Positions 1 to 22,812 of a stretch of 64,000 nt of DNA are shown here, one piece after another. The translations under genes were made by a program, and so were the position numbers. The notes beneath the pieces were generated by a model, which worked only from the letters and a program-made list of their open reading frames with translations, was not told the DNA's origin and did not search any database. The stretch is taken from assembly GCA_964016885.1 (NCBI GenBank), contig CAXHJY010000018.1, forward strand, positions 1 to 64,000, in the 5' to 3' direction. Position 1 is the first letter of the stretch. Every line of letters starts with the position of its first letter. This stretch comes from Eledone cirrhosa (taxonomy: Eukaryota).

Positions 1-3000
1 ATCTTATGTCTAGCCCTATCTAAGCTATTCCATGATTTGCTCCTGTATAGTGGGCAAATTCCTTTCATGTCCAGTTCTATGAGGGTCTTATACTTTTCCA
101 TGGCTCCTTCGTATACTCTGACTCTGTCTCTTTGGTTGTAGCCAGAGAACTGCATGCGGTTGATGAAGTGTTGGATGTGTCCTTCCATTTCTGTTGGGTC
201 GCACATGCTGGACACATTCTTCATCACTCGTACCAAATCTGCGATCAGAATATTAAACTTAGCACTACTGGACATTGCTGAGTTTTTGAGTATCAGGTAT
301 TTGGAGGCCATGGGTTTAGCATAGTGTGAGTGGAGAATTTGGGCTCTCTCGTCTATAGTGTTAATCCAGAGTTCTGTGTCTAATACAGGTAGTCTATTGT
401 TAGGGTGTTTGGAAGGGAAGTCTATAGTTACAGTTATACTCTGGTGTATGGAATTAGCTATCTGCTGGATGCTTTCCATCGTGCTACGTTCTAAATCAAA
501 CTTGTTAGTGCTCTCTAGTGGGGGTGTTCTTATAACTATATTGATATCGTCTACATAACGAGAGTACATGATGAGGTCTATGGAGCTATTATTAAGGAGA
601 TCTTTAAGTCTCCTTTCCCACCATACCATGAAAAGGTTGGCAACATCGCCAGCTATGCTGACGCCGATGGCTGCTCCCTCATTTTGGGTGTAGATTTTCT
701 CATTGAACTTAAATATGTGGCCCTTTAGGGTAGTTTTGATACTAGCCCCTATTGCATGTGCGACCATTTTTCTTACCTGATCAGTGTTTTGGGGGGTCCG
801 TATAGCTTTGGTCCACCCAATCCACCTTCCTATGGGAGTCTTTTTAGCCATTGAGGTTATGGTGGGGGGTCTACCTCTTATAGGTCTACTAGGGCAGAAA
901 CATCTAAGGTCATGGCTGTCTAGGTAGTCAGTGTCGTAGGTAAGTCTAAGTAGGAGGCCCAGTTCGTCTGTGTCGACGTCGCAGAACTCCACCTCACTCT
1001 CAATGATCATCTCCACACATCTTTTCACAGCAAAATCAATGTTAATGGATGGGTACAGTGACACCACATCCATGCTGCCTATTATGCAGTTGGATAGGCT
1101 CCTGTTTTTGTTGCACTCACTGATTCTGCTGAGGAGGTCCTCTGTACTTTCACATACATCTGGGGACATCTTGATTATGGGGCGTATAACCATTGAGAGG
1201 AAGTAGGAGATCCTGTAGTTGCTAGCTATATTAGCTCCGCATACAGGTCTTGTTGGTGGTCCTATTGTCGGGTCGTCGACTGTCTTGTGGTCTTTGCGGA
1301 GCCCATACAAGGGTGGTATGCCATTGTTAGACGCCTGGAAGTTGTTGGCAGTGCGTCTGCTTGGCTTTAGGATGTCAGTCCACATCATCATGTGAGCGTT
1401 GAGGATTTTTTCTCTCCCATCGTGTGTTAGTTGTGCAACTTCGCTCGTGTTGGTGATGTGGGGTTGCATTGCCTCGATGTAGTTCGGCATGCTATCTATT
1501 GACATCCTACCAGACTTATCTGTGGGTAGACACACTACCTCACCATCCCTTGTGCGCTGCTTGAGGCTAACCAAGCCTTCTACAGGTTTTATCCCAAGTT
1601 GTTGGGCCTCTGGTCTGCTCTGTCTCATAGTGTACCTGTCTACTACTTGTCTAATCTTATTTCTAGCTATGGTGAACTGTGCCTCCGTCTCGTCATCTAT
1701 TTGTTGTGGTATGCAAACTCTTTTATTAAAGGGTAACCTCGTAGGATAGATATTACCCATCTTATATGTTTTGTCAGCTGGGTTGAAAAATAGTTTCTCT
1801 AAGGGGTTGTCGTTATTTCTATCGTCATAGTTGTGTGTGTTGCTATTATTGTTATCATGGTGGTTGTTGTTTCTATCCTTAGCATTAATATTATTATTGT
1901 TATGATTGCTAGATGTATTGTTGTTTACTTCACCGTTATTGTTGTTGTTGTTACTGCTATTTCTACCATTGTGGTTGTTACTATTATTATGTTTCTTGTT
2001 TTTGTTGATGTTGCTACATGTACTATTTCCATTATTACCACTGTGGTTATTGTTGTTGTTGTTGTTCGTATTGTTACCGTTATTACTACTGTGGTCACTG
2101 TTGCTGTGTCTGTGGTTAACGTTTCTATTATTATTATTATTGTGGTTGTTGTTGTTCTGTCTATCGCTAGTATTATTACCATTATCACTATTTCTCACTT
2201 TCCTGCCATTGTTATGGTTATGGCTGTTATTTCTATACCCAGAGTTATTGTTTATATTACTACTACCGTTATTATTGTTGTTGTTGTTTACCTTTGCATT
2301 CCAACGTATTTTTGTGAAACACTTTTCCAGCTCCGTTTTGCATTCCATAGGATTAATCTTTTTGTAGATGGCAAATTTTGGTGGTAACTTTAGGATTTGT
2401 TGTTCTTGTTCACTGATTAAAGTGTTCCCATAGATATTTACTGTGTGGTCATTGGTAAATTCTTCCGGTAGTTTTACATCACTCATACGGATGTTGTCGA
2501 TGTTATCTGGGTATTTTTGAGAATATTCGATTTTCCTTTCTTGTAGTTTTTTCTTATTCATCCATTCTAATTTCTTCTTGAAATGCCTACAGCATTCGTT
2601 TTGAGCATATTTCGTTTCGCGTCGGATGACGCTCATGAAGTCATCTCTCTCGTTTGCTGTGATGAGATTTCGGATTTCCTTACCGTTGATGCGTTTTTGT
2701 CTGTAGAGTGCGTTGACTTTTGTGTATGTTGTTCTTTTCATATTAACTGTTATTGTGTGTTTTAGCCGTTCAGCTTGTGTTTTGTTCAATAATAAATTAT
2801 TTACTTGTTTTGATATGTTTGTTGTGTATGTTTTGGAGGAAACACAGTGTTTTAAGAAGCGGATTTGTTCTGTTGTTATTGTAGTTTTTATATAACAGAA
2901 AACAGTGTCTTTCAATAACCTTTCAGCTTGGCACAAGCTAATGCCATAGCGGCGATGAATTAGTTTTGCGAGGTTTTTTATATGAAATCGTGTGTCGAAA

Positions 3001-3029
3001 CAGATATTGTTATATTTGGGGAGGGTCAT
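1..3029 (-). CDS. PLE family A RT/GIY-YIG polyprotein, cut by the window edge
   Basis: ATG (cat at 3027-3029) begins [10 protein letters not shown]; reverse complement of 7398-10426, open to position 1. Confidence 0.9.
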   Translation of the reverse strand, partial: MTLPKYNNICFDTRFHIKNLAKLIHRRYGISLCQAERLLKDTVFCYIKTTITTEQIRFLKHCVSSKTYTTNISKQVNNLLLNKTQAERLKHTITVNMKRTTYTKVNALYRQKRINGKEIRNLITANERDDFMSVIRRETKYAQNECCRHFKKKLEWMNKKKLQERKIEYSQKYPDNIDNIRMSDVKLPEEFTNDHTVNIYGNTLISEQEQQILKLPPKFAIYKKINPMECKTELEKCFTKIRWNAKVNNNNNNNGSSNINNNSGYRNNSHNHNNGRKVRNSDNGNNTSDRQNNNNHNNNNNRNVNHRHSNSDHSSNNGNNTNNNNNNNHSGNNGNSTCSNINKNKKHNNSNNHNGRNSSNNNNNNGEVNNNTSSNHNNNNINAKDRNNNHHDNNNSNTHNYDDRNNDNPLEKLFFNPADKTYKMGNIYPTRLPFNKRVCIPQQIDDETEAQFTIARNKIRQVVDRYTMRQSRPEAQQLGIKPVEGLVSLKQRTRDGEVVCLPTDKSGRMSIDSMPNYIEAMQPHITNTSEVAQLTHDGREKILNAHMMMWTDILKPSRRTANNFQASNNGIPPLYGLRKDHKTVDDPTIGPPTRPVCGANIASNYRISYFLSMVIRPIIKMSPDVCESTEDLLSRISECNKNRSLSNCIIGSMDVVSLYPSINIDFAVKRCVEMIIESEVEFCDVDTDELGLLLRLTYDTDYLDSHDLRCFCPSRPIRGRPPTITSMAKKTPIGRWIGWTKAIRTPQNTDQVRKMVAHAIGASIKTTLKGHIFKFNEKIYTQNEGAAIGVSIAGDVANLFMVWWERRLKDLLNNSSIDLIMYSRYVDDINIVIRTPPLESTNKFDLERSTMESIQQIANSIHQSITVTIDFPSKHPNNRLPVLDTELWINTIDERAQILHSHYAKPMASKYLILKNSAMSSSAKFNILIADLVRVMKNVSSMCDPTEMEGHIQHFINRMQFSGYNQRDRVRVYEGAMEKYKTLIELDMKGICPLYRSKSWNSLDRARHK

Positions 3030-3215
3030 ATTTGCGTAATATTGCCAGAATTAATAACAGAACACACTCACTGTTTGGTTGGTTTTCGCTTCTCGCTGTC
3101 TTTTATATATATGTATCTGCGATCTAACTTACTCGGTCCTCAATGTTGCCATTGACTGACCGGCGGTCAAAAATAATACAGATACAATATAGACAAACAC
3201 ATATATATATAGTTT

Positions 3216-3256
3216 ACATAAATCTTTCGTTGCACATCTGCAACATCGTCAGTGGT
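3216..3256 (-). ncRNA. Minimal type I hammerhead ribozyme motif (family A pLTR)
   Basis: Reverse complement of CTGACGA-T-GTTGCA-GATG-TGCAAC-GAAA-GATT-TA. Confidence 0.6.
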
Positions 3257-3526
3257 GTTATATTCATTGTTCCTCCTGTTGTGTTGTATGTCTACGCCAT
3301 TTTTTTTTTGTTCAGTCTGTCTATATATTTATTTATTTATTTGCTTGTTTGTTTATCTTATTTTATTTTGTCTTCTTTGCGCATGCGTTTGCGTGTGTGT
3401 ATAGTGTTATGTGTGATGTGTGACTAGTGTGTATAGTGTTGTGTCTGCTGGGTGACTAGTGTGTGTTTATGTGCTTGTGTATGTATTTATTTATCTTATT
3501 TTATTTAATTTAATTTACTTATTTAT

Positions 3527-4333
3527 TTATACTTCTCTTAGGTCAGTGTTGTTTGTTTGGGTGTTGTTGTTGTTCCACTCATTCTTTCTGTTTAGCTTTG
3601 GTCTTCTAATTTCTATTTCACTGGCCTCTCTGATTTGCCTATCTGCTGGGTCATTCCTATGTTTAGATATTATTCTAATTTCTATGTTGTCTATGTTACC
3701 GTCATGATGTTGTCTAGCATGTTCGTATAGTACTGACCCGTTTTTTCGTCCTTTTAGTTCCCCCCAGTGTTGGTCTATCCTTTCACCTATGCTACGAGCT
3801 GTCTCACCTATGTATGTTGTTGTCGTGTTTCTGCAAGTACCCTCTGTACATCTTATGCTATAGACTACGTTTCTAGTTTTACAGTTTATCCGGGGGTTCA
3901 CCTTACATATGATACATTTCCTATTGGTACAGTGGGTTTTCTTAAAAGGGTAGGTTTTGCTGATCAGGGATTTTATGGTGGTTCCTGGCTTTTCTACCAC
4001 CTTTATTTTTAAGTGGGTCTTTCTCAGGGCCTTTCTACACTGGTTAGCTAATTTCCCTCCAGGGGTGGCGTCCACAAACATGACACTCTGATATCTCTGG
4101 TTGTCGTACCATGATGTGGCCTTCCCTATCTTATGTCTAGCCCTATCTAAGCTATTCCATGATTTGCTCCTGTATAGTGGGCAAATTCCTTTCATGTCCA
4201 GTTCTATGAGGGTCTTATACTTTTCCATGGCTCCTTCGTATACTCTGACTCTGTCTCTTTGGTTGTAGCCAGAGAACTGCATGCGGTTGATGAAGTGTTG
4301 GATGTGTCCTTCCATTTCTGTTGGGTCGCACAT
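3527..4333 (-). CDS. 5'-truncated PLE ORF: end of thumb, Cys linker and GIY-YIG endonuclease (starts MCDPTEM)
   Basis: Identical to the C-terminus of the 1209-aa ORF; truncated at the inversion junction. Confidence 0.6.
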   Translation of the reverse strand: MCDPTEMEGHIQHFINRMQFSGYNQRDRVRVYEGAMEKYKTLIELDMKGICPLYRSKSWNSLDRARHKIGKATSWYDNQRYQSVMFVDATPGGKLANQCRKALRKTHLKIKVVEKPGTTIKSLISKTYPFKKTHCTNRKCIICKVNPRINCKTRNVVYSIRCTEGTCRNTTTTYIGETARSIGERIDQHWGELKGRKNGSVLYEHARQHHDGNIDNIEIRIISKHRNDPADRQIREASEIEIRRPKLNRKNEWNNNNTQTNNTDLREV

Positions 4334-6901
4334 GGTAGAAATAGCAGTAACAACAACAACAATAACGGTGAAGTAAACAACAATACATCTAGCAATCATA
4401 ACAATAATAATATTAATGCTAAGGATAGAAACAACAACCACCATGATAACAATAATAGCAACACACACAACTATGACGATAGAAATAACGACAACCCCTT
4501 AGAGAAACTATTTTTCAACCCAGCTGACAAAACATATAAGATGGGTAATATCTATCCTACGAGGTTACCCTTTAATAAAAGAGTTTGCATACCACAACAA
4601 ATAGATGACGAGACGGAGGCACAGTTCACCATAGCTAGAAATAAGATTAGACAAGTAGTAGACAGGTACACTATGAGACAGAGCAGACCAGAGGCCCAAC
4701 AACTTGGGATAAAACCTGTAGAAGGCTTGGTTAGCCTCAAGCAGCGCACAAGGGATGGTGAGGTAGTGTGTCTACCCACAGATAAGTCTGGTAGGATGTC
4801 AATAGATAGCATGCCGAACTACATCGAGGCAATGCAACCCCACATCACCAACACGAGCGAAGTTGCACAACTAACACACGATGGGAGAGAAAAAATCCTC
4901 AACGCTCACATGATGATGTGGACTGACATCCTAAAGCCAAGCAGACGCACTGCCAACAACTTCCAGGCGTCTAACAATGGCATACCACCCTTGTATGGGC
5001 TCCGCAAAGACCACAAGACAGTCGACGACCCGACAATAGGACCACCAACAAGACCTGTATGCGGAGCTAATATAGCTAGCAACTACAGGATCTCCTACTT
5101 CCTCTCAATGGTTATACGCCCCATAATCAAGATGTCCCCAGATGTATGTGAAAGTACAGAGGACCTCCTCAGCAGAATCAGTGAGTGCAACAAAAACAGG
5201 AGCCTATCCAACTGCATAATAGGCAGCATGGATGTGGTGTCACTGTACCCATCCATTAACATTGATTTTGCTGTGAAAAGATGTGTGGAGATGATCATTG
5301 AGAGTGAGGTGGAGTTCTGCGACGTCGACACAGACGAACTGGGCCTCCTACTTAGACTTACCTACGACACTGACTACCTAGACAGCCATGACCTTAGATG
5401 TTTCTGCCCTAGTAGACCTATAAGAGGTAGACCCCCCACCATAACCTCAATGGCTAAAAAGACTCCCATAGGAAGGTGGATTGGGTGGACCAAAGCTATA
5501 CGGACCCCCCAAAACACTGATCAGGTAAGAAAAATGGTCGCACATGCAATAGGGGCTAGTATCAAAACTACCCTAAAGGGCCACATATTTAAGTTCAATG
5601 AGAAAATCTACACCCAAAATGAGGGAGCAGCCATCGGCGTCAGCATAGCTGGCGATGTTGCCAACCTTTTCATGGTATGGTGGGAAAGGAGACTTAAAGA
5701 TCTCCTTAATAATAGCTCCATAGACCTCATCATGTACTCTCGTTATGTAGACGATATCAATATAGTTATAAGAACACCCCCACTAGAGAGCACTAACAAG
5801 TTTGATTTAGAACGTAGCACGATGGAAAGCATCCAGCAGATAGCTAATTCCATACACCAGAGTATAACTGTAACTATAGACTTCCCTTCCAAACACCCTA
5901 ACAATAGACTACCTGTATTAGACACAGAACTCTGGATTAACACTATAGACGAGAGAGCCCAAATTCTCCACTCACACTATGCTAAACCCATGGCCTCCAA
6001 ATACCTGATACTCAAAAACTCAGCAATGTCCAGTAGTGCTAAGTTTAATATTCTGATCGCAGATTTGGTACGAGTGATGAAGAATGTGTCCAGCATGTGC
6101 GACCCAACAGAAATGGAAGGACACATCCAACACTTCATCAACCGCATGCAGTTCTCTGGCTACAACCAAAGAGACAGAGTCAGAGTATACGAAGGAGCCA
6201 TGGAAAAGTATAAGACCCTCATAGAACTGGACATGAAAGGAATTTGCCCACTATACAGGAGCAAATCATGGAATAGCTTAGATAGGGCTAGACATAAGAT
6301 AGGGAAGGCCACATCATGGTACGACAACCAGAGATATCAGAGTGTCATGTTTGTGGACGCCACCCCTGGAGGGAAATTAGCTAACCAGTGTAGAAAGGCC
6401 CTGAGAAAGACCCACTTAAAAATAAAGGTGGTAGAAAAGCCAGGAACCACCATAAAATCCCTGATCAGCAAAACCTACCCTTTTAAGAAAACCCACTGTA
6501 CCAATAGGAAATGTATCATATGTAAGGTGAACCCCCGGATAAACTGTAAAACTAGAAACGTAGTCTATAGCATAAGATGTACAGAGGGTACTTGCAGAAA
6601 CACGACAACAACATACATAGGTGAGACAGCTCGTAGCATAGGTGAAAGGATAGACCAACACTGGGGGGAACTAAAAGGACGAAAAAACGGGTCAGTACTA
6701 TACGAACATGCTAGACAACATCATGACGGTAACATAGACAACATAGAAATTAGAATAATATCTAAACATAGGAATGACCCAGCAGATAGGCAAATCAGAG
6801 AGGCCAGTGAAATAGAAATTAGAAGACCAAAGCTAAACAGAAAGAATGAGTGGAACAACAACAACACCCAAACAAACAACACTGACCTAAGAGAAGTATA
6901 A
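4332..6901 (+). pseudogene. 5'-truncated copy of the PLE ORF (from within the Asn-rich region through RT and GIY-YIG)
   Basis: Identical to the 1209-aa ORF from ...GRNSSNNN onward; the upstream residues in the ORF track come from the inverted arm. Confidence 0.85.
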
Positions 6902-7040
6902 ATAAATAAGTAAATTAAATTAAATAAAATAAGATAAATAAATACATACACAAGCACATAAACACACACTAGTCACCCAGCAGACACAACACTATACACA
7001 CTAATCACACATCACACATAACACTATACACACACGCAAA

Positions 7041-7132
7041 CGCATGCGCAAAGAAGACAAAATAAAATAAGATAAACAAACAAACAAATAAATAAATAAA
7101 TATATAGACAGACTGAACAAAAAAAAATGGCG
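7041..7132 (+). promoter_or_regulatory. Candidate pLTR promoter motifs: NRF1-like CGCATGCGCA and YY1-like AAAATGGCG (present in every unit)
   Basis: Motifs at 7041-7050 and 7124-7132; the same motifs occur in the same order in the otherwise divergent family B pLTR. Confidence 0.45.
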
Positions 7133-7170
7133 TAGACATACAACACAACAGGAGGAACAATGAATATAAC

Positions 7171-7212
7171 ACCACTGACGATGTTGCAGATGTGCAACGA
7201 AAGATTTATGTA
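7171..7212 (+). ncRNA. Minimal type I hammerhead ribozyme motif (family A pLTR)
   Basis: CTGACGA core, stem II GTTGCA/TGCAAC, GAAA, self-complementary AGATTT (with G.U), UA cleavage site; proximal stem I weak (CA/UG). Same position as the clearer family B motif. Confidence 0.65.
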
Positions 7213-7397
7213 AACTATATATATATGTGTTTGTCTATATTGTATCTGTATTATTTTTGACCGCCGGTCAGTCAATGGCAACATTGAGGACCGAGTAAGT
7301 TAGATCGCAGATACATATATATAAAAGACAGCGAGAAGCGAAAACCAACCAAACAGTGAGTGTGTTCTGTTATTAATTCTGGCAATATTACGCAAAT

Positions 7398-10300
7398 ATG
7401 ACCCTCCCCAAATATAACAATATCTGTTTCGACACACGATTTCATATAAAAAACCTCGCAAAACTAATTCATCGCCGCTATGGCATTAGCTTGTGCCAAG
7501 CTGAAAGGTTATTGAAAGACACTGTTTTCTGTTATATAAAAACTACAATAACAACAGAACAAATCCGCTTCTTAAAACACTGTGTTTCCTCCAAAACATA
7601 CACAACAAACATATCAAAACAAGTAAATAATTTATTATTGAACAAAACACAAGCTGAACGGCTAAAACACACAATAACAGTTAATATGAAAAGAACAACA
7701 TACACAAAAGTCAACGCACTCTACAGACAAAAACGCATCAACGGTAAGGAAATCCGAAATCTCATCACAGCAAACGAGAGAGATGACTTCATGAGCGTCA
7801 TCCGACGCGAAACGAAATATGCTCAAAACGAATGCTGTAGGCATTTCAAGAAGAAATTAGAATGGATGAATAAGAAAAAACTACAAGAAAGGAAAATCGA
7901 ATATTCTCAAAAATACCCAGATAACATCGACAACATCCGTATGAGTGATGTAAAACTACCGGAAGAATTTACCAATGACCACACAGTAAATATCTATGGG
8001 AACACTTTAATCAGTGAACAAGAACAACAAATCCTAAAGTTACCACCAAAATTTGCCATCTACAAAAAGATTAATCCTATGGAATGCAAAACGGAGCTGG
8101 AAAAGTGTTTCACAAAAATACGTTGGAATGCAAAGGTAAACAACAACAACAATAATAACGGTAGTAGTAATATAAACAATAACTCTGGGTATAGAAATAA
8201 CAGCCATAACCATAACAATGGCAGGAAAGTGAGAAATAGTGATAATGGTAATAATACTAGCGATAGACAGAACAACAACAACCACAATAATAATAATAAT
8301 AGAAACGTTAACCACAGACACAGCAACAGTGACCACAGTAGTAATAACGGTAACAATACGAACAACAACAACAACAATAACCACAGTGGTAATAATGGAA
8401 ATAGTACATGTAGCAACATCAACAAAAACAAGAAACATAATAATAGTAACAACCACAATGGTAGAAATAGCAGTAACAACAACAACAATAACGGTGAAGT
8501 AAACAACAATACATCTAGCAATCATAACAATAATAATATTAATGCTAAGGATAGAAACAACAACCACCATGATAACAATAATAGCAACACACACAACTAT
8601 GACGATAGAAATAACGACAACCCCTTAGAGAAACTATTTTTCAACCCAGCTGACAAAACATATAAGATGGGTAATATCTATCCTACGAGGTTACCCTTTA
8701 ATAAAAGAGTTTGCATACCACAACAAATAGATGACGAGACGGAGGCACAGTTCACCATAGCTAGAAATAAGATTAGACAAGTAGTAGACAGGTACACTAT
8801 GAGACAGAGCAGACCAGAGGCCCAACAACTTGGGATAAAACCTGTAGAAGGCTTGGTTAGCCTCAAGCAGCGCACAAGGGATGGTGAGGTAGTGTGTCTA
8901 CCCACAGATAAGTCTGGTAGGATGTCAATAGATAGCATGCCGAACTACATCGAGGCAATGCAACCCCACATCACCAACACGAGCGAAGTTGCACAACTAA
9001 CACACGATGGGAGAGAAAAAATCCTCAACGCTCACATGATGATGTGGACTGACATCCTAAAGCCAAGCAGACGCACTGCCAACAACTTCCAGGCGTCTAA
9101 CAATGGCATACCACCCTTGTATGGGCTCCGCAAAGACCACAAGACAGTCGACGACCCGACAATAGGACCACCAACAAGACCTGTATGCGGAGCTAATATA
9201 GCTAGCAACTACAGGATCTCCTACTTCCTCTCAATGGTTATACGCCCCATAATCAAGATGTCCCCAGATGTATGTGAAAGTACAGAGGACCTCCTCAGCA
9301 GAATCAGTGAGTGCAACAAAAACAGGAGCCTATCCAACTGCATAATAGGCAGCATGGATGTGGTGTCACTGTACCCATCCATTAACATTGATTTTGCTGT
9401 GAAAAGATGTGTGGAGATGATCATTGAGAGTGAGGTGGAGTTCTGCGACGTCGACACAGACGAACTGGGCCTCCTACTTAGACTTACCTACGACACTGAC
9501 TACCTAGACAGCCATGACCTTAGATGTTTCTGCCCTAGTAGACCTATAAGAGGTAGACCCCCCACCATAACCTCAATGGCTAAAAAGACTCCCATAGGAA
9601 GGTGGATTGGGTGGACCAAAGCTATACGGACCCCCCAAAACACTGATCAGGTAAGAAAAATGGTCGCACATGCAATAGGGGCTAGTATCAAAACTACCCT
9701 AAAGGGCCACATATTTAAGTTCAATGAGAAAATCTACACCCAAAATGAGGGAGCAGCCATCGGCGTCAGCATAGCTGGCGATGTTGCCAACCTTTTCATG
9801 GTATGGTGGGAAAGGAGACTTAAAGATCTCCTTAATAATAGCTCCATAGACCTCATCATGTACTCTCGTTATGTAGACGATATCAATATAGTTATAAGAA
9901 CACCCCCACTAGAGAGCACTAACAAGTTTGATTTAGAACGTAGCACGATGGAAAGCATCCAGCAGATAGCTAATTCCATACACCAGAGTATAACTGTAAC
10001 TATAGACTTCCCTTCCAAACACCCTAACAATAGACTACCTGTATTAGACACAGAACTCTGGATTAACACTATAGACGAGAGAGCCCAAATTCTCCACTCA
10101 CACTATGCTAAACCCATGGCCTCCAAATACCTGATACTCAAAAACTCAGCAATGTCCAGTAGTGCTAAGTTTAATATTCTGATCGCAGATTTGGTACGAG
10201 TGATGAAGAATGTGTCCAGCATGTGCGACCCAACAGAAATGGAAGGACACATCCAACACTTCATCAACCGCATGCAGTTCTCTGGCTACAACCAAAGAGA

Positions 10301-11027
10301 CAGAGTCAGAGTATACGAAGGAGCCATGGAAAAGTATAAGACCCTCATAGAACTGGACATGAAAGGAATTTGCCCACTATACAGGAGCAAATCATGGAAT
10401 AGCTTAGATAGGGCTAGACATAAGATAGGGAAGGCCACATCATGGTACGACAACCAGAGATATCAGAGTGTCATGTTTGTGGACGCCACCCCTGGAGGGA
10501 AATTAGCTAACCAGTGTAGAAAGGCCCTGAGAAAGACCCACTTAAAAATAAAGGTGGTAGAAAAGCCAGGAACCACCATAAAATCCCTGATCAGCAAAAC
10601 CTACCCTTTTAAGAAAACCCACTGTACCAATAGGAAATGTATCATATGTAAGGTGAACCCCCGGATAAACTGTAAAACTAGAAACGTAGTCTATAGCATA
10701 AGATGTACAGAGGGTACTTGCAGAAACACGACAACAACATACATAGGTGAGACAGCTCGTAGCATAGGTGAAAGGATAGACCAACACTGGGGGGAACTAA
10801 AAGGACGAAAAAACGGGTCAGTACTATACGAACATGCTAGACAACATCATGACGGTAACATAGACAACATAGAAATTAGAATAATATCTAAACATAGGAA
10901 TGACCCAGCAGATAGGCAAATCAGAGAGGCCAGTGAAATAGAAATTAGAAGACCAAAGCTAAACAGAAAGAATGAGTGGAACAACAACAACACCCAAACA
11001 AACAACACTGACCTAAGAGAAGTATAA
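7398..11027 (+). CDS. Penelope-like retrotransposon polyprotein, 1209 aa: N-terminal domain, Asn-rich insert, reverse transcriptase, Cys linker, C-terminal GIY-YIG endonuclease
   Basis: RT motifs LYGLRKDHK, RPV, SMDVVSLYPSI, QNEGAAIG, SRYVDD, LPVLD; linker CTNRKCIIC...C; endonuclease NVVY..C....C...YIGET.R...R...H...H...E...LNR. Confidence 0.97.
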   Translation: MTLPKYNNICFDTRFHIKNLAKLIHRRYGISLCQAERLLKDTVFCYIKTTITTEQIRFLKHCVSSKTYTTNISKQVNNLLLNKTQAERLKHTITVNMKRTTYTKVNALYRQKRINGKEIRNLITANERDDFMSVIRRETKYAQNECCRHFKKKLEWMNKKKLQERKIEYSQKYPDNIDNIRMSDVKLPEEFTNDHTVNIYGNTLISEQEQQILKLPPKFAIYKKINPMECKTELEKCFTKIRWNAKVNNNNNNNGSSNINNNSGYRNNSHNHNNGRKVRNSDNGNNTSDRQNNNNHNNNNNRNVNHRHSNSDHSSNNGNNTNNNNNNNHSGNNGNSTCSNINKNKKHNNSNNHNGRNSSNNNNNNGEVNNNTSSNHNNNNINAKDRNNNHHDNNNSNTHNYDDRNNDNPLEKLFFNPADKTYKMGNIYPTRLPFNKRVCIPQQIDDETEAQFTIARNKIRQVVDRYTMRQSRPEAQQLGIKPVEGLVSLKQRTRDGEVVCLPTDKSGRMSIDSMPNYIEAMQPHITNTSEVAQLTHDGREKILNAHMMMWTDILKPSRRTANNFQASNNGIPPLYGLRKDHKTVDDPTIGPPTRPVCGANIASNYRISYFLSMVIRPIIKMSPDVCESTEDLLSRISECNKNRSLSNCIIGSMDVVSLYPSINIDFAVKRCVEMIIESEVEFCDVDTDELGLLLRLTYDTDYLDSHDLRCFCPSRPIRGRPPTITSMAKKTPIGRWIGWTKAIRTPQNTDQVRKMVAHAIGASIKTTLKGHIFKFNEKIYTQNEGAAIGVSIAGDVANLFMVWWERRLKDLLNNSSIDLIMYSRYVDDINIVIRTPPLESTNKFDLERSTMESIQQIANSIHQSITVTIDFPSKHPNNRLPVLDTELWINTIDERAQILHSHYAKPMASKYLILKNSAMSSSAKFNILIADLVRVMKNVSSMCDPTEMEGHIQHFINRMQFSGYNQRDRVRVYEGAMEKYKTLIELDMKGICPLYRSKSWNSLDRARHKIGKATSWYDNQRYQSVMFVDATPGGKLANQCRKALRKTHLKIKVVEKPGTTIKSLISKTYPFKKTHCTNRKCIICKVNPRINCKTRNVVYSIRCTEGTCRNTTTTYIGETARSIGERIDQHWGELKGRKNGSVLYEHARQHHDGNIDNIEIRIISKHRNDPADRQIREASEIEIRRPKLNRKNEWNNNNTQTNNTDLREV

Positions 11028-11296
11028 ATAAATAAGTAAATTAAATTAAATAAAATAAGATAAATAAATACATACACAAGCACATAAACACACACTAGTC
11101 ACCCAGCAGACACAACACTATACACACTAGTCACACATCACACATAACACTATACACACACGCAAACGCATGCGCAAAGAAGACAAAATAAAATAAGATA
11201 AACAAACAAGCAAATAAATAAATAAATATATAGACAGACTGAACAAAAAAAAATGGCGTAGACATACAACACAACAGGAGGAACAATGAATATAAC

Positions 11297-11338
11297 ACCA
11301 CTGACGATGTTGCAGATGTGCAACGAAAGATTTATGTA
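11297..11338 (+). ncRNA. Minimal type I hammerhead ribozyme motif (family A pLTR)
   Basis: Identical to 7171-7212. Confidence 0.65.
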
Positions 11339-11523
11339 AACTATATATATATGTGTTTGTCTATATTGTATCTGTATTATTTTTGACCGCCGGTCAGTCA
11401 ATGGCAACATTGAGGACCGAGTAAGTTAGATCGCAGATACATATATATAAAAGACAGCGAGAAGCGAAAACCAACCAAACAGTGAGTGTGTTCTGTTATT
11501 AATTCTGGCAATATTACGCAAAT

Positions 11524-14500
11524 ATGACCCTCCCCAAATATAACAATATCTGTTTCGACACACGATTTCATATAAAAAACCTCGCAAAACTAATTCATCG
11601 CCGCTATGGCATTAGCTTGTGCCAAGCTGAAAGGTTATTGAAAGACACTGTTTTCTGTTATATAAAAACTACAATAACAACAGAACAAATCCGCTTCTTA
11701 AAACACTGTGTTTCCTCCAAAACATACACAACAAACATATCAAAACAAGTAAATAATTTATTATTGAACAAAACACAAGCTGAACGGCTAAAACACACAA
11801 TAACAGTTAATATGAAAAGAACAACATACACAAAAGTCAACGCACTCTACAGACAAAAACGCATCAACGGTAAGGAAATCCGAAATCTCATCACAGCAAA
11901 CGAGAGAGATGACTTCATGAGCGTCATCCGACGCGAAACGAAATATGCTCAAAACGAATGCTGTAGGCATTTCAAGAAGAAATTAGAATGGATGAATAAG
12001 AAAAAACTACAAGAAAGGAAAATCGAATATTCTCAAAAATACCCAGATAACATCGACAACATCCGTATGAGTGATGTAAAACTACCGGAAGAATTTACCA
12101 ATGACCACACAGTAAATATCTATGGGAACACTTTAATCAGTGAACAAGAACAACAAATCCTAAAGTTACCACCAAAATTTGCCATCTACAAAAAGATTAA
12201 TCCTATGGAATGCAAAACGGAGCTGGAAAAGTGTTTCACAAAAATACGTTGGAATGCAAAGGTAAACAACAACAACAATAATAACGGTAGTAGTAATATA
12301 AACAATAACTCTGGGTATAGAAATAACAGCCATAACCATAACAATGGCAGGAAAGTGAGAAATAGTGATAATGGTAATAATACTAGCGATAGACAGAACA
12401 ACAACAACCACAATAATAATAATAATAGAAACGTTAACCACAGACACAGCAACAGTGACCACAGTAGTAATAACGGTAACAATACGAACAACAACAACAA
12501 CAATAACCACAGTGGTAATAATGGAAATAGTACATGTAGCAACATCAACAAAAACAAGAAACATAATAATAGTAACAACCACAATGGTAGAAATAGCAGT
12601 AACAACAACAACAATAACGGTGAAGTAAACAACAATACATCTAGCAATCATAACAATAATAATATTAATGCTAAGGATAGAAACAACAACCACCATGATA
12701 ACAATAATAGCAACACACACAACTATGACGATAGAAATAACGACAACCCCTTAGAGAAACTATTTTTCAACCCAGCTGACAAAACATATAAGATGGGTAA
12801 TATCTATCCTACGAGGTTACCCTTTAATAAAAGAGTTTGCATACCACAACAAATAGATGACGAGACGGAGGCACAGTTCACCATAGCTAGAAATAAGATT
12901 AGACAAGTAGTAGACAGGTACACTATGAGACAGAGCAGACCAGAGGCCCAACAACTTGGGATAAAACCTGTAGAAGGCTTGGTTAGCCTCAAGCAGCGCA
13001 CAAGGGATGGTGAGGTAGTGTGTCTACCCACAGATAAGTCTGGTAGGATGTCAATAGATAGCATGCCGAACTACATCGAGGCAATGCAACCCCACATCAC
13101 CAACACGAGCGAAGTTGCACAACTAACACACGATGGGAGAGAAAAAATCCTCAACGCTCACATGATGATGTGGACTGACATCCTAAAGCCAAGCAGACGC
13201 ACTGCCAACAACTTCCAGGCGTCTAACAATGGCATACCACCCTTGTATGGGCTCCGCAAAGACCACAAGACAGTCGACGACCCGACAATAGGACCACCAA
13301 CAAGACCTGTATGCGGAGCTAATATAGCTAGCAACTACAGGATCTCCTACTTCCTCTCAATGGTTATACGCCCCATAATCAAGATGTCCCCAGATGTATG
13401 TGAAAGTACAGAGGACCTCCTCAGCAGAATCAGTGAGTGCAACAAAAACAGGAGCCTATCCAACTGCATAATAGGCAGCATGGATGTGGTGTCACTGTAC
13501 CCATCCATTAACATTGATTTTGCTGTGAAAAGATGTGTGGAGATGATCATTGAGAGTGAGGTGGAGTTCTGCGACGTCGACACAGACGAACTGGGCCTCC
13601 TACTTAGACTTACCTACGACACTGACTACCTAGACAGCCATGACCTTAGATGTTTCTGCCCTAGTAGACCTATAAGAGGTAGACCCCCCACCATAACCTC
13701 AATGGCTAAAAAGACTCCCATAGGAAGGTGGATTGGGTGGACCAAAGCTATACGGACCCCCCAAAACACTGATCAGGTAAGAAAAATGGTCGCACATGCA
13801 ATAGGGGCTAGTATCAAAACTACCCTAAAGGGCCACATATTTAAGTTCAATGAGAAAATCTACACCCAAAATGAGGGAGCAGCCATCGGCGTCAGCATAG
13901 CTGGCGATGTTGCCAACCTTTTCATGGTATGGTGGGAAAGGAGACTTAAAGATCTCCTTAATAATAGCTCCATAGACCTCATCATGTACTCTCGTTATGT
14001 AGACGATATCAATATAGTTATAAGAACACCCCCACTAGAGAGCACTAACAAGTTTGATTTAGAACGTAGCACGATGGAAAGCATCCAGCAGATAGCTAAT
14101 TCCATACACCAGAGTATAACTGTAACTATAGACTTCCCTTCCAAACACCCTAACAATAGACTACCTGTATTAGACACAGAACTCTGGATTAACACTATAG
14201 ACGAGAGAGCCCAAATTCTCCACTCACACTATGCTAAACCCATGGCCTCCAAATACCTGATACTCAAAAACTCAGCAATGTCCAGTAGTGCTAAGTTTAA
14301 TATTCTGATCGCAGATTTGGTACGAGTGATGAAGAATGTGTCCAGCATGTGCGACCCAACAGAAATGGAAGGACACATCCAACACTTCATCAACCGCATG
14401 CAGTTCTCTGGCTACAACCAAAGAGACAGAGTCAGAGTATACGAAGGAGCCATGGAAAAGTATAAGACCCTCATAGAACTGGACATGAAAGGAATTTGCC

Positions 14501-15153
14501 CACTATACAGGAGCAAATCATGGAATAGCTTAGATAGGGCTAGACATAAGATAGGGAAGGCCACATCATGGTACGACAACCAGAGATATCAGAGTGTCAT
14601 GTTTGTGGACGCCACCCCTGGAGGGAAATTAGCTAACCAGTGTAGAAAGGCCCTGAGAAAGACCCACTTAAAAATAAAGGTGGTAGAAAAGCCAGGAACC
14701 ACCATAAAATCCCTGATCAGCAAAACCTACCCTTTTAAGAAAACCCACTGTACCAATAGGAAATGTATCATATGTAAGGTGAACCCCCGGATAAACTGTA
14801 AAACTAGAAACGTAGTCTATAGCATAAGATGTACAGAGGGTACTTGCAGAAACACGACAACAACATACATAGGTGAGACAGCTCGTAGCATAGGTGAAAG
14901 GATAGACCAACACTGGGGGGAACTAAAAGGACGAAAAAACGGGTCAGTACTATACGAACATGCTAGACAACATCATGACGGTAACATAGACAACATAGAA
15001 ATTAGAATAATATCTAAACATAGGAATGACCCAGCAGATAGGCAAATCAGAGAGGCCAGTGAAATAGAAATTAGAAGACCAAAGCTAAACAGAAAGAATG
15101 AGTGGAACAACAACAACACCCAAACAAACAACACTGACCTAAGAGAAGTATAA
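11524..15153 (+). CDS. Penelope-like retrotransposon polyprotein, second full copy (1209 aa)
   Basis: Translation appears identical to 7398..11027. Confidence 0.97.
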   Translation: MTLPKYNNICFDTRFHIKNLAKLIHRRYGISLCQAERLLKDTVFCYIKTTITTEQIRFLKHCVSSKTYTTNISKQVNNLLLNKTQAERLKHTITVNMKRTTYTKVNALYRQKRINGKEIRNLITANERDDFMSVIRRETKYAQNECCRHFKKKLEWMNKKKLQERKIEYSQKYPDNIDNIRMSDVKLPEEFTNDHTVNIYGNTLISEQEQQILKLPPKFAIYKKINPMECKTELEKCFTKIRWNAKVNNNNNNNGSSNINNNSGYRNNSHNHNNGRKVRNSDNGNNTSDRQNNNNHNNNNNRNVNHRHSNSDHSSNNGNNTNNNNNNNHSGNNGNSTCSNINKNKKHNNSNNHNGRNSSNNNNNNGEVNNNTSSNHNNNNINAKDRNNNHHDNNNSNTHNYDDRNNDNPLEKLFFNPADKTYKMGNIYPTRLPFNKRVCIPQQIDDETEAQFTIARNKIRQVVDRYTMRQSRPEAQQLGIKPVEGLVSLKQRTRDGEVVCLPTDKSGRMSIDSMPNYIEAMQPHITNTSEVAQLTHDGREKILNAHMMMWTDILKPSRRTANNFQASNNGIPPLYGLRKDHKTVDDPTIGPPTRPVCGANIASNYRISYFLSMVIRPIIKMSPDVCESTEDLLSRISECNKNRSLSNCIIGSMDVVSLYPSINIDFAVKRCVEMIIESEVEFCDVDTDELGLLLRLTYDTDYLDSHDLRCFCPSRPIRGRPPTITSMAKKTPIGRWIGWTKAIRTPQNTDQVRKMVAHAIGASIKTTLKGHIFKFNEKIYTQNEGAAIGVSIAGDVANLFMVWWERRLKDLLNNSSIDLIMYSRYVDDINIVIRTPPLESTNKFDLERSTMESIQQIANSIHQSITVTIDFPSKHPNNRLPVLDTELWINTIDERAQILHSHYAKPMASKYLILKNSAMSSSAKFNILIADLVRVMKNVSSMCDPTEMEGHIQHFINRMQFSGYNQRDRVRVYEGAMEKYKTLIELDMKGICPLYRSKSWNSLDRARHKIGKATSWYDNQRYQSVMFVDATPGGKLANQCRKALRKTHLKIKVVEKPGTTIKSLISKTYPFKKTHCTNRKCIICKVNPRINCKTRNVVYSIRCTEGTCRNTTTTYIGETARSIGERIDQHWGELKGRKNGSVLYEHARQHHDGNIDNIEIRIISKHRNDPADRQIREASEIEIRRPKLNRKNEWNNNNTQTNNTDLREV

Positions 15154-15424
15154 ATAAATAAGTAAATTAAATTAAATAAAATAAGATAAATAAATACATA
15201 CACAAGCACATAAACACACACTAGTCACCCAGCAGACACAACACTATACACACTAGTCACACATCACACATAACACTATACACACACGCAAACGCATGCG
15301 CAAAGAAGACAAAATAAAATAAGATAAACAAACAAGCAAATAAATAAATAAATATATAGACAGACTGAACAAAAAAAAAAATGGCGTAGACATACAACAC
15401 AACAGGAGGAACAATGAATATAAC

Positions 15425-15466
15425 ACCACTGACGATGTTGCAGATGTGCAACGAAAGATTTATGTA
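15425..15466 (+). ncRNA. Minimal type I hammerhead ribozyme motif (family A terminal pLTR)
   Basis: Identical to 7171-7212. Confidence 0.65.
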
Positions 15467-15671
15467 AACTATATATATATGTGTTTGTCTATATTGTATC
15501 TGTATTATTTTTGACCGCCGGTCAGTCAATGGCAACATTGAGGACCGAGTAAGTTAGATCGCAGATACATATATATAAAAGACAGCGAGAAGCGAAAACC
15601 AACCAAACAGTGAGTGTGTTCTGTTATTAATTCTGGCAATATTACGCAAATATGACCCTCCCCAAATATAA

Positions 15672-15686
15672 AAATATATATGTATG

Positions 15687-15723
<37 letters not shown>

Positions 15724-15802
15724 GTATGTATATATATATATATGTATGTATATATATATATGTATGTATATATATATATATATGTATGTATATATATATA
15801 TG

Positions 15803-15855
<53 letters not shown>

Positions 15856-15907
15856 ATATATATGTATGTATGTATGTGTATATATATGTATATATATATA
15901 TATATAT
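15672..15907. repeat. (AT)n/(GTAT) microsatellite
   Basis: Direct reading. Confidence 0.95.
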
Positions 15908-16120
15908 CGTTTCTGAATTTGTTTAGCAAGATTCTTTATCTGAAATCGTGTGTTGAAACCGATATTGTTATACTTTGGGAGGGTCATGTTGCCAATAAGA
16001 AACACACGCACCAGTTGCTTTCACTTCAATTTAATTTAATATATATTTATAAATTTACAAATTTATAAATTTCTGGTTGGTTGGTTGGTTCCACAACCAG
16101 ATAGTTGTTTATATATATAT

Positions 16121-16165
16121 AGTCATAGTTCTTTCGTCACACACTCTGTGACCTCTTCAGTGACT
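16121..16165 (-). ncRNA. Type I hammerhead ribozyme motif (family B)
   Basis: Reverse complement of 17180-17224. Confidence 0.8.
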
Positions 16166-17179
16166 GGGGATTTCTTTCTTCGTTTCTGTGCCTTTCCTTT
16201 CTTCTATCCTACGCCATTTTGTTTGTGTGTGGGTTGCGTGCTCAGTTTGCGCATGCGCCACATCCGGGTGTCTGTGTGTGTTTGTGTTCATTTTTCTATT
16301 TTTCTATTTATATTTGTTTGTTTATTTATTTATTTATTGTTGGTTGGTTGTTTGTTCTATGTGTGTGTGTGTTTTCATTTTGTCTTGTGTGTGTTTTCAT
16401 TTTGTGTGTGTTTTCAATTGTAAGTTGTTTGTTCTATGTGTGTGTGTGTTTTCATTTTGTCCTTAATTGTAAGTTGTGATGTTGCTGTTCCACTCATATT
16501 TTCTATTTAATTTTGGTTTTAATTCTTTTATGCTTACTGCCTCTGTAATTTGCCTAAACATTGCGTCTTTCTTGTGTGTGGATTCTATTTTTATTTCTAT
16601 GCTCTCTAATTTACCCCTGTGTTCTATCTTACTCGTAGTATAGGGGAACGAATAAATGAACACTGGCGAGACCTCCAAGATAGTAAAGAATCATCTGTGC
16701 TCTACCAACATGCTAAGATAGAACACAGGGGTAAATTAGAGAGCATAGAAATAAAAATAGAATCCACACACAAGAAAGACGCAATGTTTAGGCAAATTAC
16801 AGAGGCAGTAAGCATAAAAGAATTAAAACCAAAATTAAATAGAAAATATGAGTGGAACAGCAACATCACAACTTACAATTAAGGACAAAATGAAAACACA
16901 CACACACATAGAACAAACAACTTACAATTGAAAACACACACAAAATGAAAACACACACAAGACAAAATGAAAACACACACACACATAGAACAAACAACCA
17001 ACCAACAATAAATAAATAAATAAACAAACAAATATAAATAGAAAAATAGAAAAATGAACACAAACACACACAGACACCCGGATGTGGCGCATGCGCAAAC
17101 TGAGCACGCAACCCACACACAAACAAAATGGCGTAGGATAGAAGAAAGGAAAGGCACAGAAACGAAGAAAGAAATCCCC

Positions 17180-17224
17180 AGTCACTGAAGAGGTCACAGA
17201 GTGTGTGACGAAAGAACTATGACT
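17180..17224 (+). ncRNA. Type I hammerhead ribozyme motif (family B)
   Basis: AGTCA-CTGAAGA-G-GTCACA-GAGTG-TGTGAC-GAAA-GAAC-TA-TGACT: perfect stem I (AGTCA/TGACT) and stem II, complete core. Confidence 0.82.
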
Positions 17225-17374
17225 ATATATATATAAACAACTATCTGGTTGTGGAACCAACCAACCAACCAGAAATTTATAAATTTGTAAATTTATAAAT
17301 ATATATTAAATTGAAGTGAAAGCAACTGGTGCGTGTGTTTCTTATTGGCAACATGACCCTCCCAAAGTATAACA

Positions 17375-19570
<2,196 letters not shown>

Positions 19571-19575
<5 letters not shown>

Positions 19576-21207
19576 TTCAAAATATTAACAAAAATAGACA
19601 TTCGTGTGATCAAGTATATTTTATTATACATATTTCAGAGGTACTGAGCTAACTTGAACAATACGTCCTCATCAGATAAAATAAGATGAATCATGACATA
19701 CCCTGACATAGTAGATGGTTAAGATTCAGTCACGGTAGTGAATAACATATGCCAAAACTCAATATTTATATACCTTAAGATTGAGACATGAAAACATTTA
19801 CATATAATACAGAGGGTGCGTGTGAGAAAGCTTAAAAATACATAATAGCAATTTACATAACTGTTAGAGATTCAAATAATTTAAATTATTGAAGAAAGAA
19901 GAAAGACAGAGAGAAACAGATGAGGAGAAAATATATTTACTAGAAGTATAGAAAGCAAAAGAGAATTGATCAAGGATAGAGAGACAAGGAGTAATAATTT
20001 TTATAGTATAAAGCATAGGGAGGTTTGTATTGTCGTGGATGAATAGGGTGTGATTAGATAATGCAAAAATTATATATATCTATACAAACACATGAATATA
20101 CATTTAGGCATAGCTTTGTGAAGGAGTAAACTCAAATTTTTTAATTATTGAATTATCTAGAGGTATCCATCAATCTAAATATTAAATATATCTGGGTGTA
20201 AATTTCGAGTCCTTAGTTAATTAGAAATATACTAACAATTAATTATATACACTACATATATCCAAATGTATCCGGCTGAACGTTAAATTTCAAATCATTT
20301 ATTTATGTTAGTTCAGAATAAGGAATTAATCAAAATGTATAATATTTCAGGCTATAAATGTTTATAAATATCTATATTAATATTAAAGTATACTATCATA
20401 TTTAATTTATAAAATCATATTTGAAGTATTTGCAAACATGAGAAGGAAGACTTAATATTTTCATCTTCACGAAGGTAATCCATATTAAATTATATTATCT
20501 TATATTATATAAAAAAAACTTTTTATATTGAAATAATAGACATTATATAATTTAGAAAATAATTACAGTTATAACTTTAAAAATTTAAAATTAACAATTA
20601 GTATCTAAAGGCCTTATAATTAAACTTAAAAAAGGGTATTATTAAATTAGATATATGCATTTGTCTAAATATATACAAAGAGCATATTGTCTAAAGTTCA
20701 AGACGATATTAGTCAGTTATACATAACATAATATAATATAATATAGGAAATAAGTTACTGTTAATATTGTTAAAAATTAATGTTATTATATTAGGATCAT
20801 GTAATACATATATACTATAAATATACACATCAAACTTCATGAATCATAAGGATACGAACCAGATTCAAAGTAAAAAAGTAAATTGCTTGCGATCATAAAA
20901 GTGCCAAATATCTAATCTATACAATTTTAAAATACAAGAAAATTTTTTTAAGGATCTATATTGTAGTATAATATCATATTTAAAGTGTCTGCAAACACGA
21001 GAAGGGTAAAGCTTAAGATTTTCATTGACCCGAAAGTAATCCGAATTTAATTAAATAAAATAATAATAATCGTTATATAATTTAGAAAATATTTAACAAT
21101 TATAACACTAGAATGTCCTTAATTATCTAAAGTACTTATACATGTAGCTAAAAGCATGTTATTATACTAGATATACACATTTGTCCAAATATACATAGAG
21201 TATTCTG

Positions 21208-21210
<3 letters not shown>
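19571..21210 (-). mobile_element. Non-coding AT-rich hammerhead-bearing element (probable PLE pLTR or non-autonomous derivative)
   Basis: Bounded by (AT)n; hammerhead near its 3' end; terminal ~95 bp repeated at 21958-22052; internal degenerate duplication (about 20415-20690 vs 20972-21208). Confidence 0.55.
19619..19681 (-). ncRNA. Type I hammerhead ribozyme motif
   Basis: Minus strand: TTTTAT-CTGATGA-GGAC GTATTG...CAGTAC CTCT-GAAA-TATGTA-TA-ATAAAA; 6-bp stem I, self-complementary stem III. Confidence 0.72.
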
Positions 21211-22440
<1,230 letters not shown>

Positions 22441-22505
22441 CAAGGGCGGTGCCCCAGCATGGCCTCAGCCGGATGGCTGAAACAGGTAAAAGAGGTAAAA
22501 GAGTA
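22441..22505 (+). mobile_element. 3' tail fragment of an octopus-type SINE/LINE
   Basis: GGCGGTGCCCCAGCATGGCC...GCTGAAACAGGTAAAAGAGGTAAAAGA resembles the common octopus SINE 3' end (recalled, not searched). Confidence 0.55.
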
Positions 22506-22773
22506 TGCTATTTTCATCATTTCTAAAAATAGCAAAACAATTGATGCTTTGGATATGATTAATTATTGGTCGTTAGACATGCTCAACCAGCCGTGACGCT
22601 TAAACCAATCAGCTTTAGTAATTCAGTGAAACTACACACTGATTGGTCGAAATACAGTTTGCAAGACTTAGGATTCTGGAGCCACTTTTCCCTGTATAAA
22701 ATGTATAAAAGGTAGAAAATTTACCCATCTTATTACAGTTGGAAATTGCAAATTTGACTGTCACCACATATTA

Positions 22774-22812
22774 TGAACCTGAAGATTGCGAAAGCATGAA
22801 AGTACTTGTTCA
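22774..22812 (+). ncRNA. Minimal type I hammerhead ribozyme motif in a pLTR-like segment
   Basis: TGAAC-CTGAAGA-TTGC GAAA GCAT-GAAA-GTAC-TT-GTTCA: stem I TGAAC/GTTCA, GNRA-capped stem II, palindromic AGTACT. Confidence 0.78.

Follow-up and report, generated by a model that had tools for sequence, protein, structure and literature searches.

Several routes have been put forward by which Penelope-like elements (PLEs) and related retroelements might come to lie in tandem. Self-cleavage of the RNA, ligation to a circle and more-than-unit reverse transcription into head-to-tail tandems were proposed by Cervera and de la Pena in 2014 (PMC4209133), and the circle model was repeated later (PMC6765202). 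For retrozymes without long terminal repeats (non-LTR retrozymes), circular RNAs were shown and proposed as templates of reverse transcriptase (RT) (PMC7229834; bioRxiv 10.64898/2026.07.22.740005). A multi-copy mRNA was favoured for the Poseidon element PAc of the green anole (PMC11167929), and inverted arms were explained by self-priming on an antisense template (PMC3846280); further related literature includes PMC6431247. In the present study a PLE of Eledone cirrhosa was analyzed in the first 64,000 bp of the unplaced 99,000-bp contig C45 (G000:C45:1-64000, hereafter the window). At this locus a Penelope-like retrotransposon has very recently inserted, as a fresh copy with two arms, into a (TA)n microsatellite, and with its sampled relatives the insertion was used to ask how such arrays are copied.

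In a self-comparison the plus strand repeats every 4126 bp between 4329 and 15677, and 1-4334 holds an inverted copy. Unit positions are counted from the ATG (window 7398 = 1), the spacer is unit 3631-4126, and +n stands for position n of the next open reading frame (ORF). The direct arm consists of unit 1057-4126, two full units and the stretch up to +26, followed by (TA)n; the inverted arm comprises within the window unit 2823-4126 and then unit 1-3029, where the contig begins. The features are as follows.

1-4334, minus strand: inverted arm, with unit 2823-4126 at 4334-3030 and ORF positions 1-3029 at 3029-1
3030-3526, minus strand: inverted-arm spacer (pseudo-LTR body) by unit alignment, A-run of 10
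3214-3257, minus strand: inverted-arm type I hammerhead motif, CTGA at 3252
4329-4334, no strand: head-to-head junction of the arms, unit 2823 against unit 1057-1060, with a 3-nt exact overlap
4332-6901, plus strand: innermost turn of the direct arm, partial, its ORF truncated at the 5' end
6902-7397, plus strand: spacer B, A-run of 9, G>A at 7004 and 7084
7170-7213, plus strand: type I hammerhead of spacer B, CTGA at 7175, predicted cut 7208/7209
7398-11027, plus strand: intact 1209-aa ORF with N-terminal domain, Asn-rich insert, telomerase-like RT, CX4CX2C linker and GIY-YIG-type endonuclease with CCHH
11028-11523, plus strand: spacer C, A-run of 9, hammerhead core at 11301
11524-15153, plus strand: second intact 1209-aa ORF, identical in sequence to the first
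15154-15651, plus strand: spacer D, A-run of 11, hammerhead core at 15429, outermost and presumably copied first
15652-15677, plus strand: ORF +1 to +26, outer end of the direct arm and putative short priming site, C>A at 15672
15678-15905, no strand: (TA)n-type microsatellite target, the same at nearly all family loci sampled

The initial annotation had described positions 1-15,671 as head-to-tail 4126-bp units with identical ORFs and one hammerhead motif per spacer. Unit alignment bears out the period, the identity of the ORFs and the motif in each spacer, and likewise A-runs of 10, 9, 9 and 11 in the four spacers and the G>A changes at 7004 and 7084; the list of differences was nearly complete, missing only, within the last 26 nt, C>A at 15672 as a further substitution. 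The purely head-to-tail layout was wrong: 1-4334 lies on the minus strand and is joined head-to-head to the plus arm, only three spacers stand in tandem, and that with ten A residues sits in the inverted arm. A single-direction concatemer had been proposed, and the inverted arm and the two-sided priming described below were missed.

The insertion extends beyond the window. Base 1 (unit 3029) abuts in register a contig end in scaffold C4 (G000:C4:275,261,029; unit 3030, minus strand), and the C4 part supplies the missing outer end of the inverted arm, namely a second spacer, +69 and then (TA)n. Joined, C4 and C45 read (TA)n, +69, an inverted arm of 5.5 kb, the junction, a direct arm of 11.3 kb, +26 and (TA)n, altogether ~16.8 kb with five spacers and 1.33 inverted plus 2.75 direct units. 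The count of units here rests on the assembly, public reads being short-read contigs only; among those of four runs on 4290-7420 none spans the region and the junction is absent from the joints listed. In run X1 the depth drops ~20-fold from the 3' end to the middle of the ORF, as predicted by 5' truncation; a run presumed to be RNA yielded 2 records. A mis-threading of the assembly through the identical inverted arms, which would make the unit number an artefact, is a very remote prospect, for which several details can nevertheless be named. The junction 30-mer (window 4318-4347) is found twice, here and at C2:348,856,397, with different right ends, since the C2 copy starts after a gap, has an A-run of 12 in spacer D, ends at +84 and continues into another flank; both copies stand at contig starts, C45 has exactly 99,000 bp and was evidently cut from the C4 contig inside the array, and spanning reads are lacking. 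Against it, spacer B is marked out by its own substitutions, the joined contigs yield the +69/+26 pair usual in the family, and at least four other multi-turn arrays lie on C1 in gap-free sequence with (TA)n at both ends. The C2 copy may be a mis-join or a real duplicate, and no long homology was found between the C45 flank and 70 kb around it. In any case this doubt touches the count at this locus and not the pattern of the family.

The same inversion junction is present twice in three cases, this locus and C2:348,856,397, L015/L179 (C15:42.40 Mb) and L079/L080 (C1:36.13-36.14 Mb), and in each case one copy ends at a short site and the other at a long one (+26/+84, +30/+79 and +26/+71). The doubling may stem from the assembly, from a duplication by way of (TA)n or from copying that passed the junction again.

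The family was surveyed with an exact 31-mer of the hammerhead, which has 8,475 matches genome-wide, and an exact 27-mer at ORF +86, which has 382 (382/8,475, or 4.5%); loci were drawn from the first 100 matches listed of each. The first-pass sample took up 58 of the 81 clusters of hammerhead matches, namely all 16 multi-hit clusters and 42 of 65 single ones, so that two-armed and long loci are over-represented, and gave 71 arms after one duplicate was dropped; the second-pass sample comprised all 61 clusters of the +86 list on C1, with 63 arms. Arm ends were read by hand from BLAST tables, three in diverged copies being approximate. Among the sampled arms turn 1 was completed by 4 of 71, turn 2 by 4 of 63 and turn 3 by one of four; the ratio of the two match counts puts turn completion genome-wide at 4.5%. 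Stops per segment in the first versus the second pass were 9/71 versus 4/42 (unit 3840-3901), 9/62 versus 6/38, 18/53 versus 14/32, 11/35 versus 6/18, 8/24 versus 0/12 and 12/16 versus 7/11, and stopping did not differ in five of the six segments (Fisher p 0.49-1.0). The lengths of multi-turn arms fit a constant stopping rate across turns. Of second-pass arms, 38 of 63 continue beyond the spacer A-run and enter the ORF that lies upstream of it, none of the 63 ends within 5 nt of the predicted ribozyme cut, and 17 of 20 that were followed downstream ran through the unit to the normal end. None of 37 inner spacers has a change of its own at the cut site, the two with an insertion sharing it with the outer spacer.

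Arms with at least two full turns (4/63) lead to an expectation of ~24 genome-wide, and this locus is therefore a fresh member of the expected tail and not a one-off. Other arrays are found at C1:14.38 Mb (3.1 turns), C1:124.46 Mb, C1:181.30 Mb and C1:307.33 Mb; the concern that other loci never exceed 1.x units was itself refuted by the genome-wide survey, in which multi-unit arms recur. A plain linear transcript of a 1.x-unit copy could not give these patterns if the RNA starts in the upstream spacer, as it does in Penelope of Drosophila virilis (PMC2377424).

Two observations concern single positions or loci. At window 7118-7132 and its equivalents an A-run is followed by TGGCG, which we take to resemble a YY1-type motif; unit 3840-3900, where 9 of 71 first-pass arms stop, may mark the transcription start or a pause of RT. 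Arms at L030, L065, L070 and L106/L173 show internal deletions or skips; as the inner turn of L030 and of L070 retains what was skipped, the template skips took place during copying or later.

Sequence variants were compared between turns and between arms. The same-strand comparison covers 33 pairs, two of which are not true turns and add 660 sites without differences. Adjacent turns differ at 58 of 61,869 sites, and five of these differences were found in any other of 64 young loci, two of them at an alignment-ambiguous site. At 13 of 23 loci the turns have variants in common that were unseen in the other young loci sampled, 'unseen' being relative to 64 loci out of probably thousands. Where both comparisons could be made (14 loci), divergence was 0.051% from turn to turn and 0.083% from arm to arm; over 54 overlapping pairs, arms differ at 68 of 75,108 sites. 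As arms usually carry the same variants, they usually stem from one template sequence. The longest arrays are among the least diverged internally, their 4.1-kb turns differing by 0-2 substitutions. One arm at C1:181.30 Mb lacks the same 138 bp in each of its three spacers, a deletion present in no other of 160 pieces; splicing was rejected as its source, the deletion lying between 17-nt direct repeats.

The A-run lengths, which the initial annotation had read as a record of slippage on successive passes, are poor evidence of passes, because assembly consensus error or replication slippage would give them equally well. The two G>A changes are real, and that at 7084 also occurs in the outer spacer on C4, hence it is not a simple per-pass error; both spacer-B alleles were scored in the sampled loci only. 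A strand-biased deaminase as their cause is unsupported family-wide (26 G>A versus 19 C>T).

Priming appears to be two-sided. In 56 of the 58 two-armed loci with both ends readable (7 unreadable loci were left out) one arm ends at +12 to +31, mostly at +26, and the other at +60 or beyond, mostly at +69, +71, +84 or +85 (p = 1e-14 against chance pairing); the two exceptions both come from pairs of loci with a duplicated junction, one from each pair. AU/UA, predicted to pair with a (TA)n primer, is found at the common ends. This counted rule sharpens the known statement that the tail is often at only one end (PMC8557442) and agrees with the extension of both strands from two internal sites observed in vitro (PMC11167929), and the fixed short and long ends do not need self-priming on an antisense template. 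Atypical outer ends followed by (TA)n were seen in L093-L094 (C2:46.11 Mb) and L143/L177 (+148; unit 2304), which suggests occasional priming at other AT-ending sites. Co-travelling RTs are not supported, the lengths of the two arms showing no clear correlation (rho 0.21, p 0.23, n = 33).

The hammerhead at 7170-7213 has the core CUGACGA/GAAA, a 6-bp stem II, a 2-bp stem III and a 2-bp proximal stem I, and its stem III contains the self-complementary AGAUUU, able to pair with a second copy. The cut predicted between 7208 and 7209 agrees with the RNA 5' end at 7209 anticipated earlier. Across 14 sequences of two families stem II is paired in 100%, with two pairs changed on both sides, and stem III in 96%, the related sequences inflating the shuffle control of this covariation. 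With the core CUGANGA/GAAA/UH, stem II and a short palindromic stem III, the motif has the predicted make-up of a PLE-variant type I hammerhead. A search of Rfam over 1-20000 did not detect it and gave only microsatellite-driven microRNA matches, and no stable fold was predicted at the priming sites.

As for the protein, an AlphaFold model (residues from window 4541) reached a mean predicted local distance difference test (pLDDT) of 89.9, and its six best Foldseek matches are telomerase RTs (best E 8e-9); judged from this model the RT is closest to telomerase RT, as in PLEs. Profile searches gave weak RT matches only, the 1209-aa protein had no match in Pfam, and the PDB sequence search (single protein) and the phage collection returned nothing. 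The linker C-TNRK-C-II-C (CX4CX2C) precedes the endonuclease, with C653 and C658 conserved in 52 homologues; the endonuclease motif VVY-x-C-x4-C-x-YIG, followed by R, H, HH, E and N, was recognized at motif level, without a profile match, and Y676, C680, C685, Y692, R703, H707 and H723 are at least 90% conserved in the same 52 homologues. Thus the CCHH and the conserved R, H, E and N of the C-terminal GIY-YIG endonuclease of endonuclease-bearing (EN+) PLEs are found at motif level, together with partial tandems forming pseudo-LTRs, an inverted 5' copy and an optional tail, and the CX2-5CxxC linker between RT and endonuclease is that of Neptune/Nematis as defined in PMC8557442. Judged by these motif definitions, the element is of the Neptune/Nematis type. 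An Asn-rich in-frame insert of (AAC/AAT)n character lies at window 8136-8630 (ORF codons ~247-410), and comparable inserts are known in rotifer PLEs (PMC3846280).

It is very probable that the arms were copied from a seamless unit template, of whatever kind, that was read again and again. The best single candidate for it, at a little under even chances, would be a circle of ~4.1 kb made by hammerhead cutting and re-ligation, favoured because every unit has one conserved ribozyme and no stop or scar was found. From the priming sites a cut but unligated linear monomer is predicted to allow cDNA (complementary DNA) of only 215-273 nt, which requires an intact or re-ligated template; DNA alone cannot tell what closes the loop. 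More tentatively still, we propose an autonomous retrotransposon that integrates by double rolling-circle reverse transcription, two RT subunits starting ~45-60 nt apart on the hammerhead-made 4.1-kb RNA circle, primed from both (TA)n break ends and running independently. On the hammerhead-made circle as the best single candidate, the steps would be as follows. A spacer-ORF-spacer copy would be transcribed from the upstream spacer; two hammerheads, probably paired as dimers and possibly assisted by protein, would cut, and the monomer would be ligated. The protein would then cut both (TA)n strands, and the two DNA 3' ends would prime at AU/UA-ending sites in the start of the ORF, the short one at +26 and the long one at +69 to +85, these being ~45-60 nt apart. 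Each RT would run on, with the required strand displacement, until it drops off at ~0.7-0.8 per kb, so that ~5% would finish each turn. Microhomology would join the two cDNA ends, and occasionally RT would switch templates or copy by fold-back between the arms. If true, double rolling-circle copying explains at once the regeneration of the pseudo-LTR, the one-sided tail and the inverted arm.

Other templates would also return to the spacer. Without any ribozyme, a linear, terminally redundant RNA (spacer-ORF-spacer plus +84) might be used, RT passing in register from its 5' spacer to the 3' spacer of that molecule or of another one, similar to LTR strand transfer; we consider this unlikely. 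It explains the homogeneity of turns and the occasional alleles of a second template, a homology-based switch leaves no scar, template jumps would be visible as the one-turn internal deletions, and it accounts for tandems in hammerhead-less PLEs (PMC8557442). However, it needs near-perfect transfer and predicts an excess of second-pass stops at the RNA 5' end, where 4/42 faces 9/71 of the first pass in 3840-3901 (p = 0.76), as well as rare alleles in both outer spacers and not the inner one, of which there were none (24 variable sites in 14 loci, with low power). To our knowledge no RNase H has been recognized in the PLE enzyme. An equal chance is given to a long linear multimeric RNA that is reverse transcribed once, arising by read-through of multi-unit masters or by rolling transcription of a one-unit DNA circle formed by recombination between spacers. 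This scenario, outlined by Frangieh et al. (PMC11167929) and mentioned in a review (PMC6765202), needs no ligation and fits C2:74.89 Mb, and all the genomic patterns reported here would look the same had a DNA circle been transcribed round and round. Read-through of chromosomal masters, however, cannot lengthen arrays, and arms of at least two full turns are rare (4/63); turn differences specific to a master should recur in siblings and divergence between turns should exceed that between arms, neither of which was seen; and the thrice-repeated private deletion needs a step of single-unit re-reading somewhere in its history.

Arrays built and homogenized after insertion, through unequal crossover between spacers and gene conversion between inverted arms, are very improbable. 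The sharing of alleles between the inner turn of one arm and the outer turn of the other does fit hairpin-mediated conversion, and segments containing the junction are locally duplicated at two other loci; yet a more-than-unit arm is needed as a start, the frequency of arrays is that predicted from RT drop-off alone, and the longest arrays are, as said, among the least diverged internally.

Several points weigh against copying on a hammerhead-made circle. The weightiest are published: the anole PLE can insert in vitro without its hammerhead, at whose cut no RNA-seq reads end (PMC11167929), and Naiad and most Chlamys PLEs make tandem or inverted insertions and lack canonical hammerheads (PMC8557442). 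The proximal stem I of this family has 2 bp against 5 bp in the neighbouring family described below, where 4-6 bp are expected; a distal extension is predicted here, and overall folding has z = -0.13. D. virilis Penelope is the analogy by which arms are taken to run past the promoter, and segment 1760-2399 differs between passes (8/24 versus 0/12, p = 0.03, one of six tests). Among the 24 variable sites in the 14 loci with at least three pieces, 20 are singletons and four are shared contrary to the expectation from a single circle. At C2:74.89 Mb the rare allele of position 3145 is in both outer turns and not in the inner one, a linear-template pattern; at C1:181.30 Mb the arms differ, with 2092 in one arm only and 2413 in the inner direct turn and the other arm, and three changes of the outer inverted spacer are absent from the inner spacer; at the present locus the allele at unit 3813 (window 7084) is common to spacer B and the outer spacer on C4. 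These three loci need a second template or conversion, and the shared alleles would be explained if templates were switched, if copying folded back at the junction or if the inverted arms underwent conversion. At C2:46.1 Mb and C1:90.09 Mb the arms are so different that two RNAs may be suspected. The view of the initial annotation that one unit was copied repeatedly fits the length distribution, the seamless spacers and the shared private variants and is not new as a mechanism (2014); it is a plausible and already published idea, for which the family provides circumstantial support at the genome level, these exceptions apart.

Further sequences of the window were noted in passing. An older two-armed insertion of a related PLE family lies in the same (TA)n tract at 15914-17377 (also near 34207-34257, minus strand), and has a hammerhead of its own, with a stem I of 5 bp and cores on the minus strand at 16160 and on the plus strand at 17185; the start of its ORF is nearly identical. 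Repeated CTGANGA...GAAA motifs at 33224-33310, 33918-34000, 49526 (minus), 49659 (plus), 19675 (minus), 35119 (minus) and 35136 (plus), some of them in divergent pairs, may be hammerheads that belong to other repeat families. At 17277-23100 degenerate (TA)n/(TATG)n microsatellite extends over several kb and leads to long spurious reading frames, and 47000-49000 is a GC-rich island (56-57%). Runs X4, X5 and X7, labelled as other organisms, hold near-identical sequence (58-73% of sampled words), and long stretches of the ORF are matched by contigs of X4 at 0-3 differences; the reason may be close relationship or a recent transfer.

The architecture and the circle hypothesis are already known, and the value of the family lies in its youth, its thousands of copies and its intact ORFs, which leave a countable record of each copying run. 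Twin priming of L1, in which the second primer anneals internally, shares the head-to-head inverted 5' arm and the microhomology join; its arms are contiguous on the RNA, whereas here both arms start at the same fixed pair of sites and copy overlapping sequence. It was rejected for this locus, the inverted arm ending at +69 and the direct arm starting near 1057, with outer ends in the family fixed near +26 and +69/+84. Non-LTR retrozymes have the same tandem units with one type I hammerhead each, but theirs are non-coding, non-autonomous units of ~170-400 nt with canonical, efficient hammerheads (PMC7229834; bioRxiv 10.64898/2026.07.22.740005), whereas the 4126-nt unit here holds an intact 1209-aa ORF and encodes its own RT and endonuclease, which sets it apart from them. 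Poseidon PAc of the green anole (Frangieh et al. 2024, PMC11167929) shares the cut and extension of both strands, the AT-rich target, a predicted dimer and two internal RT start sites in the start of the ORF that define the tail; there the start site showed no strand difference in vitro, whereas the arms here use mutually exclusive sites, and its hammerhead, dispensable in vitro, lies at the ORF start, that of the present family 189 nt upstream of the ATG.

Close to the present element are also the canonical PLEs with C-terminal endonuclease of the Neptune/Nematis type (PMC8557442), with the same single ORF of RT followed by a GIY-YIG-type endonuclease, CX2-5CxxC linker and CCHH, the same partial tandems with an inverted 5'-truncated copy, a tail at one end, (TA)n targeting and a pseudo-LTR hammerhead. 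Their descriptions centre on 1.x-unit tandems and a tail of 30-40 nt, whereas in the present family the tail has 43-59 nt, arms reach 3.1 units with geometric frequency, and the end rule was counted in 56 of 58 loci. Within the literature listings, with subscription papers and supplements outside their scope, neither stopping rates across turns nor a counted short/long rule was found for a PLE; that one arm uses the short and the other the long site must be explained by any PLE mechanism. The model of PMC4209133, where helix III is described as short and palindromic and helix I of D. virilis as having 2 bp, much like the hammerhead here, was tentative and came without insertion statistics; to it the present analysis adds genomic tests (stopping rate, scars and shared private variants) together with their exceptions, by which the suggestion of 2014 becomes sharply testable, with a circle or none and a hammerhead needed or not.

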